Shown: positions 49,920-55,005 of the stretch, one piece after another
Layout of the letters: the number at the start of each line of letters is the position of its first letter
How positions within the stretch are numbered: position 1 is the stretch's first letter
Assembly: GCA_964016885.1 (NCBI GenBank)
Contig: OZ024746.1
Location: forward strand, 81,158,001 to 81,222,000
Source of the DNA: Eledone cirrhosa
Taxonomy: Eukaryota
Length of the DNA stretch: 64,000 nt
Reading direction: 5' to 3'
Notes under the pieces: generated by a model
Told to the model about the DNA's origin: nothing
Database searches by the model: none
Seen by the model: the letters and a program-made list of their open reading frames with translations, nothing else
Program-made: the position numbers and the translations under genes

Positions 49920-50006
49920 GTTCAACAATCTGGCAGGAAGGTATACGTTGCTGACGATAGCTAACAAGCTTGAAACTAGTACAGCGTTCCTTTGTCAGTG
50001 TTGAAC
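49920..50006 (+). ncRNA. Type-I hammerhead ribozyme, minimal palindromic stem III
   Basis: acgttg-CTGACGA-t agc taacaa gct t-GAAA-ctag-TA-cagcgt. Extended stem I gttcaac/gttgaac, ctggc/gtcag, gaagg/ccttt. GUA cleavage after 49981. Confidence 0.85.
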
Positions 50007-50341
50007 AAATGAGCAACGGTGGTTGCTAGACACTACGGCTTAATACGGGATGTTTGTTTACAAATACACCGAGCATTATAATAAATGTTCGGTGAATCCA
50101 TACGTGCATATATATATGTGTGCATGTATGTATATATATATATACATACTACTGTACGTCGGTATACATATATGTATGTACGTGTACATACTTATATTTA
50201 AGTAACAGCCGTACTAAGAGTGGGAAATGAAATATCGTTTCATTTTTTCCGTTTATCGTTTTCGGTGCACCCGGCCGATTAACCCACTCGATATGCAAAT
50301 TGGGCTACTCAGCCGTTGATATGCATAAGGTAAGTATATAC

Positions 50342-50428
50342 GTTCAACAATCAGGCAGGAAGGTATACGTTGCTGACGATAGCTAACAAGCTTGAAACTA
50401 GTACAGCGTTCCTTTGTCAGTGTTGAAC
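50342..50428 (+). ncRNA. Type-I hammerhead ribozyme (second tandem 422-bp unit)
   Basis: Same core as 49920-50006; cleavage after 50403. Confidence 0.85.
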
Positions 50429-50825
50429 AAATGAGCAACGGTGGTTGTTAGACACTACGGCTTAATACGGGATGTTTGTTTACAAACACACCGAGCATTA
50501 TAATAAATGTTCGGTGAATCCATACGTGCATATATATATATGTGTGCATGTATGTATATATATATATACATACTACTGTACGTCGGTATACATATATGTA
50601 TGTACGTGTACATACTTATATTTAAGTAACAGCCGTACTAAGAGTGGGAAATGAAATATCGTTTCATTTTTTCCGTTTATATATATACACATATACATAT
50701 ATATATATATATATATATATATATATATATATATATATATATATATATATATATATATATATATGTATATATACATACATACATATATATATGTATATAT
50801 ATATCTATATATATATATATATACA

Positions 50826-51263
50826 TAACTTTGAAATGTTTTGGCCAGTATTGGCCCAGGTCATGTCTAACTTAATAGCACCACCTGGCGAAGTCTTTCA
50901 ATTCAGGATTTGGGCACCATGGCCCATTCGAGAAGAGAATTACTGTTTGCGGAGACATATCCGGGTGTGGGTGGTTTGTCCGGGATTACTTGGAGGAATT
51001 TGTCCAAAGACTTCTTGAACTTTGTGTGGTCAGTTTCTATTTTGACGTGTCCTGGTGTGATGTTGAAGAGAGCAGGGCCAATTGAGGTGAAATAATTGTG
51101 CTGTACTGCTGTTATGAGTTGCGATTTAGATTTTTGTATGGGACGGATAGCACGGGGCCCAAGCCTTGGGTGTATCTTGAAGGCGATGCCAACATCATTT
51201 GGGCAGTGATGATGGAACATTTTCCACATCATGCAGATAATATAACGCTCACGGCGACGTTGG
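50826..51263 (-). mobile_element. CR1/L2-group LINE 3' fragment embedded in (TA)n
   Basis: Open frame [46 protein letters not shown] typical of CR1-group RT C-termini, plus a short 3' UTR. Confidence 0.8.
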
Positions 51264-52071
51264 ATATATATATAAATATATATACATATATATATATACA
51301 TATATATATATATATATATACATACATATATATATATATATACATACATATATATATATACATATATATATATACATACATATATATATATATATATATA
51401 TATATACATACATATATATATATACATATATATATACATATAAATACAAATATATATACATACATATATATATATATATTCATATATATATATATACCTA
51501 TATATATATACATATATATATATATATATATATATATATATATATATATATATATATATACATACATACATATATATATACATATATATATACATACATA
51601 TATATATATATAATATATATATATATATATATATATATATATATATATATATATATATATACATACATACATATATATATACATATATATATATACATAT
51701 ATATATACATACATATATATATATATTAGCATACATATATATATATATACATACATATATATATATACATATATATATATATATACATATATATATATAT
51801 ATATATATATATATATACATATATATATATACATATATATATATATATATATACATATATATATATACATACATATATACATATATATATACATACATAT
51901 ATACATATATATATATATATATATATATACATACATATATATATATACATATATATATATATATACATATATACATACATATATATATATATATACATAT
52001 ATATATATACATATATATACATATATATATATATATATATATATATATATATATATATATATATATATATA

Positions 52072-52284
52072 TATACTTGGGGAGGGTCATATTTGTGTAA
52101 TATTGCTAGAATTAATAACAGAACACACTCACCGTTTGGTTGGTTTTCGCTTTTCGCTTCTGTGTCTTTTATATCGGTAATCTAATTTATTCGGTCCTCA
52201 ATGTTGCCATTGACTGACAAACGGTGAGTGTGTTCAGTTATTAATTCTGGCAATATTACACAAATATGACCCTCCCCAAGTATA
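52072..52284. repeat. ~67-bp inverted repeat pair (foldback element; relative at 24548-24650)
   Basis: tatacttggggagggtcatatttgtgtaatattg...ccgtttg (52072-52138) mirrored at 52218-52284. Confidence 0.85.
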
Positions 52285-52405
52285 ACAATATTTGTTTCGA
52301 CACACGATTTCATATAAAAAAACCTCGTAGGCGAATTGGCAGAGTCGTTAAGACTCGGATAGAATGCTCTACGGTATCCCATTCGCCTGTTTATCACATG
52401 CACAT

Positions 52406-52452
52406 CTGATGACCCTGTGATAAACAGGCGAAAATCCAGTGTAACAAGATTC
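52406..52452 (+). ncRNA. Hammerhead ribozyme-like motif with disrupted stem I
   Basis: CTGATGA-c cctgt gataa acagg c-GAAA-atc...gat-TC. Upstream lies an inverted partial copy (52382-52397); downstream is the GTATTGAGTAC tail shared with 48090. Confidence 0.55.
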
Positions 52453-53129
52453 ACTATTTAGCTTTAATATAATGAATATCTAAACTCTACTTCAGTATTG
52501 AGTACTAATTTCTCTCAACCACCATACGAATATATATGTATATATAGTTAAAAAAAAAAAACAACGCATGACTAAGTCTATTTTGAATTTATATTCTAAA
52601 GACTTCCCAGACAGCAGCAAAACAGCACATATATTGCATCTACTTAAAAAGCATTCAAATCCCCTTCAAACATTACCTTATATATGAAGAAAACACATAC
52701 GATCAAAATTTTCCAAAATGGATTACGTAAAAAATTCTGATGTTCTGCGAAATAACGCATTTTTTGTATTAATATAATACAAAAAATTCAATAAAATCCA
52801 TAATAAATTGTCTTTTCTTTGTGAATAGATTCTCACTCAATAATTTTGTTAAATTATATCTATTGTCTTATTAAAATTGGAGTATTGGGGACCGTCTATA
52901 AAATATAGGTATAGGTTGCGCGATTTTTGAAAAATTACTTGGAAAAGTTACTTGGAATTTATGTTTAAATTAAGTAATTAAGTAATTTATGTTTAAATTA
53001 AGTAATTAAGTAATTTATGTTTAAATTAAGTAATGCCATTTTCGAGTGATTTCATAAACTGGACTTCAACCCTAATAACTTTTCATCTGATTTTTCATTG
53101 TTACAAGACGATGCTAGAAATTTAGAGGG

Positions 53130-53470
53130 AGAGATTAGTCAATCAGATAAATTGATCCCAGTACATGACTGATACTTTATTTTATCGAACTCGGAGGCAT
53201 GAAAGGCAAAGTTGATCTCCGTGGTTTGAACTCAGAACATAAAGAGCCGGAACAAATACTGCAAGGCATTTTGCCTTTATCCACCGTCCTCACTAAAAGC
53301 TGAAAGCCAATAATTTGTGGGAGGGAAAAGTAGATTATATCGACTTCAGTATTTATCTGGTATTTTATTTTTATTGAAACTGGAAGAATGAAAAGCAAAG
53401 TTGACCTCGGCAGAATTTGATCTCCGAACACAAAGAGCCGGAACAAATATTTCAAGACATTTTCTCCAAT
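53130..53470 (-). mobile_element. Two tandem octopus-type SINEs
   Basis: Two reverse-complement cores ATGAAAGGCAAAGTTGA..TTTGAACTC. Confidence 0.7.
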
Positions 53471-53899
53471 GTTCCACTGATTCTCCCTATACACCGTTCT
53501 CAACACTTATATAATAAAAATAATATTAAAAAAAAATTGTTTTGTTTTCTTAAGAGTCATTTACGTCTAAGAGAGAAAAAAAAGCTAAACGTCTGTGTAT
53601 ACAAACCCCTGTGTTTATATACACCGGGTTTGAATTACATTACCTGCAAAGAATGTAGAGTATTTATTACAGTCGTACTTTAATAACGAGGAGAGAAACA
53701 GCAAGTGGTGGAGGTGGGGGGGGGGGGGTGTTACTCTTCTATATGCGGTTGTTTCTTTCTTTCTTTCTTTTTTTCACAGGTGGATCACATTGGTCAAGGA
53801 GCAACAAACACATCAATAACAAACATGTGTGTTTGTATGTATGTATGTATGTATGTATGTATGTATGTATGTATGTATGTATGTATGTATGTATGTATG

Positions 53900-54170
53900 T
53901 GCCTTTGCTTACTATAAAAGCTTCACGGCACAGGCATTGCTTTATATCTGGAGATCTCTCTGCATTTGTCGTCACATGGTACCAAGGGCCCAGCACTATC
54001 TGTCAATAATTGTCACAAGTGTAGTGTTTGTACCAGAGTTTTCAAGTCTCTGGCTGGACTAAAAAGTCACACTCGTTCAGCTCATCGGTAGGGGTTCTCC
54101 TACATGGATATAAAGTAGTGGCCGTACTCGAAAACGAGTTGACAGCCACCATGTGTGTATGTATGTATGT
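53900..54170 (+). mobile_element. RTE LINE 3' end (copy of 45645-45900) inserted in (TATG)n
   Basis: HKCSVCTRVFKSLAGLKSHTRSAHR*; (TATG)n on both sides. Confidence 0.7.
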
Positions 54171-54385
54171 TGTATGTATGTACGTATGTATGTATATTTG
54201 TACACACGCACATACACACACACATAGATAGATAGATATAGAGAGAGGGGGGTGAGAATCATATGTATATACATATGAGACGGACGTACGAACAAACACG
54301 TATACATCTATGAATAGAAATTACTTACACACACACACACACACACACACACACACACATATATATATATATAGTATAAAGAATT

Positions 54386-54471
54386 GGGACCCGACGGCTG
54401 AGCTATTGCCGTTTCAACTGTTAGTTCCTGAATTTGCTGTTGAAACGGCAAGAGCTCAGCCGTCGGGTCCC
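54386..54471. repeat. 33-bp-arm hairpin containing the 3' half of a hammerhead (GAAA-cggc..gccg-TC)
   Basis: gggacccgacggctgagctattgccgtttcaac / gttgaaacggcaagagctcagccgtcgggtccc. Homologue on the - strand at 24391-24469. Confidence 0.7.
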
Positions 54472-54861
54472 GACACTTTATAATATAACCATACTCTACT
54501 ACCCCAAGAATCGCGTACTTTATATATATTATATATATATATATATATATATATATATATTAACACCGTATGGCATAAATTCAGGCTGTTCAGTTTGTTT
54601 ACAGACGAACAAAGCGACGTTAGCGCCGCTAAACTGATACGTGCATATATGTATGTGTACCTGTATGCATATGTATGTATATGTGTATATATATATATAT
54701 ATGTGCATGCTACTGTACGTCTGTATACATATATGTATGTACGTATACATGCATACTTACATTTAAGTAAGTGCCATACTAAGAGTGAGAAATGAAATTT
54801 CGTTTTCATTTTGTTTCAATTTATCGTTTTCGGTATGCCTGACCGATTTAACTCACTCAAT

Positions 54862-54869
54862 ATGCAAAT
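54862..54869 (+). promoter_or_regulatory. Octamer ATGCAAAT (repeated at 55328, 55794, 56260)
   Basis: Perfect octamer ~50 nt upstream of the ribozyme stem in each unit. Function is inferred. Confidence 0.4.
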
Positions 54870-54918
54870 TAGGCTGCTCAGCCGTTAATTTTCATAAGGA
54901 AAGTATATACTTTCGAAC

Positions 54919-55005
54919 GTTCAACTATCTGGCAGATGGGTAAACGGTGCTGATGATAGCTAACAAGCTTGAAACTAGTACATCGTTCCTGTGTCAGTGT
55001 TGAAC
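54919..55005 (+). ncRNA. Type-I hammerhead ribozyme, unit 1
   Basis: aacggtg-CTGATGA-t agc taacaa gct t-GAAA-ctag-TA-catcgtt. Extended stem I gttcaac/gttgaac and ctggca/tgtcag. GUA cleavage after 54980. Confidence 0.88.

Follow-up and report, generated by a model that had tools for sequence, protein, structure and literature searches.

The two tandem arrays found in a 64,000-nucleotide stretch of contig OZ024746.1 of Eledone cirrhosa (hereafter the window) are probably young insertions of a non-coding retrozyme. This is judged jointly with the best explanation as a whole, which we consider to have a good chance of being correct: a retrozyme with a conserved fold and Penelope-type copying, the inserted copies of which decay neutrally. 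From their motifs and pairing, the repeats are predicted to carry a self-cutting hammerhead RNA.

The 422-bp family (A) is present as two arms joined head-to-head. The inverted arm (49486..49814, minus strand; locus L014) reaches the flanking (TA)n within the unit's own TA tract, before a fixed site termed S1, and the forward arm of about two units (49806..50680, plus strand) stops at a second fixed site, S2, adjoining (TA)n. The inversion junction (49806..49814) is near-symmetric (unit positions 260/256) and lies at an internal hairpin. A type I hammerhead is located in the inverted arm (49646..49688, minus strand, C3 at 49682), and on the plus strand in copy A2 (50367..50409, C3 at 50373) and in copy A1, where hammerhead and extended stem I rod span 49920..50006 (C3 at 49951), core and stem I span 49945-49987 and cleavage is predicted between 49981 and 49982, after U16.1-A17. 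The "tail" of unit A1, between S1 (unit position 219) and S2 (275), corresponds to 50200..50256 (plus strand). The insertion is flanked by a (TA)n-type target tract on its left (47542..49525) and a (TA)n tract on its right (50678..50827). The 466-bp family (B) forms an array of 4.6 units (54560..56688, plus strand), 99% identical to one another, which starts at about unit position 46 and ends at S2, with (TA)n on either side (54521..54560 and 56686..56765). Copy B1 contains a hammerhead with extended rod (54919..55005, plus strand, C3 at 54950), followed on the same strand by further cores (C3 at 55416, 55882 and 56348), and the section from S1 (unit position 251) to S2 (310), which is the tail of this unit, lies at 55231..55290 (plus strand). 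The units have a GC content of about 37%. No stop-free frame of at least 250 aa was found over the unique parts of the window arrays, and tblastn gave no match to Penelope-like element (PLE) proteins within the 64-kb window. A CUGAUGA motif at 52406 was rejected as a hammerhead, as it lies in a simple hairpin and has neither helix I nor helix III.

Within the units, CUGAnGA, GAAA and UH occur in order with helix I open, as in the core of a type I hammerhead, and all six stem I pairs and four inner stem II pairs are formed in 10/10 variant types despite their different letters. Helix III is short with a palindromic loop, the palindrome being spelled ACTAGT, ACATGT or ACGCGT among the ten variant types. 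Four pattern searches for a non-palindromic helix III (644, 461, 140 and 163 matches) revealed no large family, and the matches listed, the first 100 of each search, consisted of single mutants, which were scattered, and of old families of the ACATGT type. The canonical G10.1-C11.1 pair is replaced by U·U in both A and B; a standard pair is present here in only four of the ten variant types, with G-C confined to lineage C. For axolotl HHR_Amex2, PMC7229834 describes a U·U variant at the base of helix II, so the non-canonical pair weakens the term "canonical" and not the term "hammerhead". No Rfam hammerhead model matched at gathering score (the best, HH9, reached 18.5 bits versus 52, E = 0.87), and Rfam matches to miRNA precursors, also below gathering score, were set aside as hairpin or microsatellite artefacts.

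Families A and B share 353 of 412 aligned positions (85.7%). The first-pass annotation had read their divergence as structure-preserving and as pointing to selection on the ribozyme. Its observations of a 28-nt segment identical in both families, of N7 as the sole core change and of both outer helices being retained were confirmed, the second plus-strand copy of A differing by a private T>A at 50353, within the ctggc strand. The roughly 44 nt of indels reported outside the ribozyme are the net length difference, the gap columns amounting to 64 (54 + 10). Stem I pair 2.3:1.3 is indeed U·G in A and G·U in B. It was found genome-wide in several states (U·G/G·U/A-U/U·U = 41/30/15/3) that are linked by single steps and include the unpaired U·U, so the difference is not the single compensatory flip that had been proposed. 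The local ribozyme fold is more stable than its shuffles (z −3.8 in A and in B). The ribozyme domain differs between A and B at 9 of 87 sites versus 49 of 325 elsewhere (Fisher p = 0.30), the probability of no change at the 11 core nucleotides is 0.18, about 0.55 identical runs of at least 26 nt are expected anywhere by chance, and a 22-nt identical run also occurs outside the ribozyme. The pairwise test, not being significant, was dropped as evidence for selection; the claim that the RNA fold is conserved and the ribozyme selected does not follow from the A/B pair alone and holds once genome-wide copies are included. The structure-preserving divergence itself is present but is not specific to the ribozyme, with three double compensatory changes in predicted helices outside it. 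Two are in the long-range helix H3 (50034..50213, plus strand; 50034-50040 with 50207-50213), which encloses hairpins including an AU-rich one: from A to B, 50036:50211 changes from C-G to U-A and 50040:50207 from U-A to A-U. The other is in helix H7 (50218..50289, plus strand; 50218-50223 with 50284-50289), where A has G-C and B has A-U at 50223:50284.

Pattern searches found some 58,700 type I hammerheads of this kind in the genome (28,547 + 11,329 + 18,862 matches), with 5, 9 and 4 matches for reversed controls; that CUGAnGA/GAAA does not vary across lineages C, F and G is due to the search patterns, which require it. The copies sort into at least four lineages and occur in dispersed, high-copy tandem arrays, the units of which measure a few hundred bp and each contain an intact type I hammerhead, some long arrays having irregular unit lengths. 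It should also be noted that two regions found by a non-ribozyme motif (L085 and L167) have no recognisable core.

Among 92 insertions, none of the 23 columns of the core, helix III and inner stem II showed a lineage-level change versus 81 of 320 columns outside (p = 0.0016); this set leaves out near-identical BLAST hits (L001-L030, the window's own excepted), and all mutation counts exclude the microsatellite part of the unit as well as the loci retrieved with mutated-core patterns (L201-L260). The subset of 70 insertions carrying the non-ribozyme motif gave 0/23 versus 77/301 (p = 0.0015), and in lineage C alone (27 insertions) the lineage-level constraint was not significant; columns are linked by descent, so that these p-values overstate independence. 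The positions that vary inside the motif are N7, H17, loop II and 10.1/11.1, those which hammerhead chemistry leaves free. Within 47 multi-copy insertions, differences were counted at 21/3131 constrained versus 250/29128 other sites, or 0.0066 versus 0.0069 per site with CpG excluded. The contrast between lineage-level and within-insertion classes was significant (p = 0.0025; p = 0.031 for the 11 core nucleotides alone) and weaker when rare alleles were used as the neutral class instead (p = 0.07-0.08). As copies within one insertion mutate evenly, selection is placed during spread and not after insertion. These data support the conclusion that the core is kept in spreading lineages, while in inserted copies its nucleotides are lost at the background rate. 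We regard it as rather likely, jointly with the overall explanation, that selection acts on the element's own propagation and not on the host. Separately, the X3 DNA contigs showed variants of at least 5% at 25 of 331 positions and at none of the 23 constrained ones, an observation that is weak alone and perhaps assembly-dependent.

Constraint was also detected beyond the ribozyme. The predicted circle folds gave z values of −6.8, −10.1 and −9.1 in A, B and C, with the same order of helices. Outside the ribozyme, seven double changes were counted versus 1.9 expected (p = 0.002) and 12 pair breaks versus 27 expected (p = 0.001). Ten real monomers yielded 30 doubly changed pairs, compared to 19.2±2.5 in shuffled and 4-7 in slid controls; 21 of the 30 lie outside the ribozyme, and long-range pairs about 170 nt apart covary. 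G·U exceeded A·C by 14:5 (p = 0.03), the ratio in lineage C being 2:2. In sequence-aligned lineage C rows, the 12 double changes outside the ribozyme were not above slid controls (7-15), and in the single lineage F unit tested the antisense strand folds better. Taken together, the modelled folds support the conclusion that predicted base pairs of the whole unit, and not of the ribozyme alone, are kept in spreading lineages.

The architecture of the insertions follows a strict pattern. Strand switches were of the head-to-head type ("−+") in 58 cases versus 2 of the opposite type ("+−"), and 152 of 181 S1/S2 ends adjoin TA runs. Flanks of (TA)n would mask any target-site duplication. Inverted two-arm events (56) had one end at S1 and the other at S2 in all 34 that were classifiable, 22 being left unclassified at one end or more, the window's own among them. 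The same was found for 17 of 18 short-arm events and for 12 of 12 inverted events of lineage F, the fourth lineage, giving 63 events for the rule and one doubtful against; two events at L138 with identical junctions, probably one duplicated insertion, are counted twice. This stricter, motif-based classification replaced an initial count of 38/38, in which the window's inverted arm had been called S1 on microsatellite similarity. Of the 75 single-strand insertions in which an end could be classified, 50 have no second arm. The tail measures 56-69 nt in A, B and C and about 26-34 nt in F. A search of the openly accessible literature, bioRxiv supplements aside, returned no description of this family or of a rule of one end of each kind.

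A source for the copying enzyme is suggested by ORFs in the genome that combine RT and GIY-YIG domains, for example one of 938 aa. No pLTR donor resembling the units was detected in 50 GIY-YIG loci and 11 downstream regions (150 of 10,596 candidates scored), nor was one found among the old hammerhead lineages. In work on the Penelope element PAc, two internal RT start sites bound the tail in vitro, both target strands are cut and extended, a dimer is predicted and hammerhead cleavage is dispensable for insertion in vitro (PMC11167929). The element is classed as a non-LTR retrozyme that bears the "tail" signature of Penelope elements, and it was likely inserted by double priming. It is likewise likely that its lineages depend on an RNA stage, self-cleaved and probably circular, from which a Penelope-type RT/GIY-YIG enzyme would make copies in (TA)n, and that the ribozyme core and whole-unit pairs are kept because no lineage can bypass this stage.

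The tandem units would first be transcribed, and neighbouring hammerheads would then cleave after U16.1-H17, probably as dimers via the palindromic helix III; the palindrome is conserved, and cleavage is expected by analogy with known type I hammerheads. The monomers would circularise, adopt the branched fold predicted above and supported by covariation, and present the UA-rich start sites S1 and S2. The enzyme would cut both strands of the (TA)n target and prime two cDNAs, starting at S1 and S2 respectively, which would circle any number of times, and their 3' ends would join, often by microhomology of 1-6 nt. The expected product is the head-to-head insertion with one S1 and one S2 end that is observed, and the inserted copies would decay neutrally, as seen in the 47 multi-copy insertions. 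The most specific form of this model, in which a Penelope RT-endonuclease dimer primes both cut (TA)n ends from two structure-defined sites on one circular ribozyme RNA and selection acts on the entire folded circle of the retrozyme, a viroid-like replicon, is given an even chance.

The same element under the same selection could also have been inserted by a single priming event, with cDNA fold-back or endonuclease resolution leaving a tail at one end. This reading, which likewise predicts one tail per insertion, draws on self-priming on an antisense template and on EN-mediated resolution of the tail, as proposed in PMC3846280 and PMC8557442, respectively, and near-symmetric junctions (8 of 68, several at internal hairpins, the window's own included) fit it. 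Fold-back predicts equal arms and a symmetric junction, however, and the arm starts are more than 20 nt apart in 60 of 68 junctions (median offset of the asymmetric junctions 110 nt), in 33 of 36 multi-copy events the two arms differ in length (some arrays being cut by the edges of fetched sequence), and in lineage F either arm may be the longer. Single priming is thus considered unlikely.

It is improbable that RNA structure is under no selection, the pattern being due to a few related lineages and chance, to DNA-level inverted-repeat correction or to protein-DNA binding. Hairpins can be perfected by template switching, and such an explanation would agree with the non-significant A/B comparison, with lineages that are few and linked and with a G·U bias that is modest and absent in lineage C. 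It does not account for variation restricted to positions which hammerhead chemistry leaves free, for stems I and II being rewritten yet paired in every variant type, for covariation between distant pairs or for the even mutation of inserted copies. The units might lastly represent an ordinary satellite that arose from solo Penelope pLTRs and was amplified through unequal crossover, the ribozyme being a passenger or part of a circular RNA with a host function. Local amplification from a pLTR has been suggested for vertebrate retrozymes in 10.64898/2026.07.22.740005, and the irregular unit lengths of some long arrays are in keeping with it, but the arrays are dispersed, each terminates within (TA)n at S1 or S2, and the two arms of one insertion may both be multimeric. 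Under selection at the level of the host, the core of inserted copies should be protected; no such protection is seen, and this alternative is viewed as highly improbable.

Hammerhead conservation in such repeats is expected, and two by-products of the analysis matter more. The rule of one S1 and one S2 end bears on the inverted repeats and one-sided tails of Penelope elements, called unresolved in the literature, and links the retrozymes of animals with Penelope enzymes through mechanism and not by mere co-occurrence. The lineage-level constraint, set against even decay after insertion, indicates that selection acts on the replicating RNA, over the whole fold. If dimer and two-site priming holds true, tens of thousands of insertions would constitute an in vivo readout of it, explaining tail and inversion together. 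A non-coding template of 310-470 nt, for which two start sites have been mapped and compensatory variants occur naturally, would offer a ready substrate for the in vitro Penelope assay that already exists.

In LINE-1 twin priming, two primers from the two target ends act on one RNA, with microhomology joining and inversion, which resembles the two-end priming proposed here, microhomology joining and inversion included. The second LINE-1 primer has no constant internal site and the LINE-1 arms are non-overlapping, whereas both start sites are fixed here and both arms repeat one and the same unit. Dimeric hammerheads of the newt satellite type, as described in PMC4209133, share the 2-bp helix III, the palindromic 2-nt loop and the tandem arrangement, while the palindrome here covaries among homologous lineages of one genome (ACTAGT versus ACATGT). 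Metazoan non-LTR retrozymes (accessible parts of Cervera and de la Peña 2020, PMC7229834, and of the preprint of Li et al. 2026, 10.64898/2026.07.22.740005) are similar in that their non-coding units stand in tandem, measure a few hundred bp, have low GC and contain one type I hammerhead each, in lacking LTR, PBS and PPT, in a self-paired predicted circle and in co-occurring Penelope elements. Their published range is 150-450 bp and the present units, at 310-470 bp, lie at and above its upper part; those parts describe neither head-to-head insertion nor the targeting of (TA)n, nor two fixed ends or covariation over the whole circle.

EN+ Penelope-like elements (PMC11167929, PMC3846280 and PMC8557442) share a head-to-head, inverted, 5'-truncated arm, a tail at one end, microsatellite targets, a hammerhead in the repeat and two internal start sites bounding the tail. 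They carry an ORF and a tail of 30-40 bp, while the present units have no ORF and, in A, B and C, a longer tail; the Penelope tail is described in these accounts as optional or often at one end, in contrast to the strict rule of one end of each kind. The start sites here are UA-rich and target-like, whereas PAc initiates at a site without homology to the cut DNA, and PAc showed no difference in start site between strands while S1 and S2 differ by end (PMC11167929).

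The window (G000:C6:81158001-81222000, in a genome of 3.0 Gb) contains two repeat families, A (422 bp) and B (466 bp), with one type I hammerhead motif per unit in both. The motifs of A lie at 49951 and 50373 on the forward strand, with an inverted copy at 49682 on the reverse strand, and those of B at 54950, 55416, 55882 and 56348. The sequence statements of the first-pass annotation all check out, with the qualification that its 44 nt of indels is the net length difference between A and B, the alignment having 64 gap columns. The selection on the ribozyme that it deduced from this pair does not follow, as two sequences alone do not show selection: overall identity is 85.7%, the 87-nt ribozyme domain (hammerhead and extended stem I) has 9 differences compared with 49/325 outside (p = 0.30), the chance of the 11-nt core remaining unchanged is 0.18, and a 22-nt run identical in A and B is also found outside the ribozyme. 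A 17-bp hairpin with CUGAUGA...GAAA at 52382-52432 was judged not to be a hammerhead, being without helix I or III.

Across the genome, the A/B-type pattern gave 28,547 matches (control 5), a second pattern 11,329, for the most part from lineage C together with type D (control 9), and a pattern for lineage F (310 bp) 18,862 (control 4), a sum of approximately 58,700 in which slight overlap is possible. Lineage C can be aligned with A/B along the full length of the unit, and an older lineage, G, has about 70% identity to A (E 1e-20). Lineage F resembles them in ribozyme type and in its pattern of insertion, with no homology to A/B seen outside the ribozyme. B-like and A-like copies were also present in contigs from sequencing runs coded organisms D and E. 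The analysis drew on 170 merged regions, most of them in the initial 34 Mb of contig C1, which together contain 450 copies in 173 insertion events.

The six pairs of stem I and the four of inner stem II form in every one of ten variant types (10/10), most of these positions showing between two and five kinds of pair; the search patterns did not require this pairing. They did require the core letters, and core invariance across types is therefore no evidence. Helix III and its loop form a 6-nt palindrome in all ten (ACTAGT, ACATGT or ACGCGT); for tandem repeats, a palindromic helix III has been published as an indicator of dimeric cleavage (PMC4209133). Four further searches with helix III unconstrained gave 644, 461, 140 and 163 matches; the matches listed (first 100 each) consisted of single mutants, scattered, and of old families of the ACATGT type. 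At 10.1:11.1, 6/10 types have a non-standard pair, which is U·U in both A and B; Rfam did not call the motif of these units as a hammerhead. The 'flip' reported for stem I pair 2.3:1.3 is better described as pairing kept through single steps via A-U and U·U, the states among 92 insertions being U·G 41, G·U 30, A-U 15, U·U 3, C-G 1, A·G 1 and A·A 1. It should also be noted that in a B-type array (L330, G000:C1:319892500-319898500) every other copy has ACATGT instead of ACTAGT, a double change preserving the palindrome. Older decayed hammerhead families, ACATGT-type and others (L313-L329, L383, L384), have loop II AAYA in common and little in common in their flanks.

To examine selection, one copy was taken from each of 92 insertions of the A/B clade, and variants were counted if common to at least 7%. 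None was found in 11 core, 4 helix III or 8 inner stem II columns, compared with 81/320 outside (all 23 columns, p = 0.0016; core only, p = 0.043), although the linkage of columns by descent counts against these p-values. In the 70 of these copies that have a non-ribozyme motif the result was 0/23 against 77/301 (p = 0.0015). The ribozyme changes that do appear fall at N7, loop II, H17 and 10.1/11.1. Differences among copies within one insertion served as the neutral control (47 events, 139 copies) and numbered 21/3131 at the 23 constrained positions and 250/29128 outside, or 0.0066 and 0.0069 without CpG. The contrast between the two levels gave p = 0.0025 (core alone 0.031), or only 0.07-0.08 when rare alleles were taken as the neutral class instead. 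In lineage C alone (27 insertions) the constraint was not significant. Our reading is that constraint acts while lineages propagate and not on inserted copies.

The predicted circles of A, B and C, each folded independently with 40 shuffles, have helices in the same order and z-scores of -6.8, -10.1 and -9.1, respectively. For 69 high-confidence A pairs, all beyond both the ribozyme and the AU hairpin, compared across nine subfamily majority sequences, a letter-matched null gave 1.9 double changes and 27 breaks; 7 (p = 0.002) and 12 (p = 0.001) were observed, four of the breaks lying in a single hairpin whose register was shifted by an indel. Between A and B themselves there are three double changes among these pairs, 50036:50211, 50040:50207 and 50223:50284. 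In ten real monomers 30/128 pairs had changed on both sides, compared with 19.2±2.5 when shuffled and 4-7 when slid, the structure being taken from one row and the shuffle test inflated by relatedness. Of the 30, 21 lie outside the ribozyme rod. The C rows on the sequence alignment had no double-change excess over slid controls. From a Watson-Crick start, G·U exceeded A·C by 14:5 (p = 0.03), which points to sense RNA; the ratio in lineage C alone was 2:2, and the one F unit tested folded better as antisense. It is thus the fold and not the sequence that is conserved, as had been proposed for the ribozyme, but this extends to the entire unit.

Strand switches within insertion events were head-to-head in 58 cases and tail-to-tail in 2. 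Outer ends gather at two places in the unit, named S1 and S2 (219/275 in A, 251/310 in B, 233/302 in C and about 139/165 in F), and 152/181 such ends in A/B/C adjoin TA runs. Under strict motif-based calling both ends were classifiable in 34/56 inverted events, and all 34, one probably counted twice, combined an S1 end with an S2 end (probability 0.5^34 for independent events). Short inverted arms gave 17 cases concordant with this rule and 1 doubtful discordant case, and lineage F, looked at after the rule was noticed, gave 12/12. No second arm was found in 50/75 single-strand events. The B array in the window terminates at S2.

It is inferred that double priming makes the inverted insertions: one target end would prime at S1 and the other at S2, each cDNA would roll round the circle, and the two cDNAs would then join. 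Transcription, cleavage and circularization of the units, and a partner enzyme, are further proposed steps. Fold-back self-priming could also produce inverted arms, and the head-to-head A insertion in the window, with its S2 end, does have a near-symmetric junction. However, arms made by self-priming should be equal and their junctions symmetric, both of which are in the minority here: arms are unequal in 33/36 multi-copy events and 60/68 junctions are asymmetric. Of all 68 junctions, 27 have 1-15 nt overlap (mode 2), 9 are flush, 27 have gaps or inserts and 5 have overlap >15 nt. In two separate lineage F insertions (L363, L368) the inverted arms meet at an identical junction, overlapping by 16 nt at a long internal helix; this may be a hotspot for junctions. 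With regard to double priming, a Penelope enzyme assayed in vitro cuts both strands and extends both, and it is predicted to dimerize (PMC11167929).

Elements with RT and GIY-YIG domains occur in the genome, with stop-free frames of 1096, 938 and 844 aa, among others (L293, G000:C1:83812000-83820000; L291; L292). These are candidate autonomous partners; no hammerhead was recognizable within 750 nt downstream of them. One such Penelope-type family (L294, G000:C6:60240000-60248000; L290, L295, L299, L304, L306) has its own predicted hammerhead about 380 nt after the ORF, with U·U at the stem II base and an AGTACT helix III palindrome, and L306 is itself a head-to-head inverted insertion. None of the RT and GIY-YIG elements examined has a pLTR in common with the A/B/C/F repeat units.

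Other elements were also noted in the window. A near-perfect hairpin of about 90 nt (54384-54472, -70 kcal/mol) follows a TA tract, has counterparts in 20/170 fetched regions and is probably a small foldback or MITE-type element also favoring (TA)n. Terminal inverted repeats of about 70 bp surround a short spacer at 52075-52281, adjoining (TA)n, in what we take to be a MITE-like element, with similar sequence in 8/170 regions. A short broken reading frame between two TA tracts (50830-51262, reverse strand) presumably resembles the C-terminal end of a CR1/L2-type LINE ORF2. A 24-bp unit repeated about 497 times (28363-40286, 92% matches) has frames on both strands that run for about 4000 codons without a stop, and is adjoined by a U6 snRNA copy (28076-28182) and followed by a 17-bp satellite (40341-42485). 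A tRNA-like sequence at 22078-22149 (33 bits) is possibly a SINE head or pseudogene.

The conservation of the ribozyme, the original finding, holds true but was to be expected. Families of genomic hammerheads have been noted before to covary (PMC4209133), and for the giant squid a list of 235 hammerheads exists (PMC6962438). What raises the significance beyond this is the end rule, together with the level at which selection acts. No description of this repeat family, of the one-S1-one-S2 rule or of whole-circle covariation in animal retrozymes was found in the published literature searched. The S1-S2 stretch matches the Penelope 'tail', which is described either as optional or as frequently present at one end (PMC3846280, PMC8557442) and in vitro lies between two internal RT start sites (PMC11167929). 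On all features that sequence can test, the A and B repeats are a metazoan non-LTR retrozyme, and they work like those described (PMC7229834; 10.64898/2026.07.22.740005).
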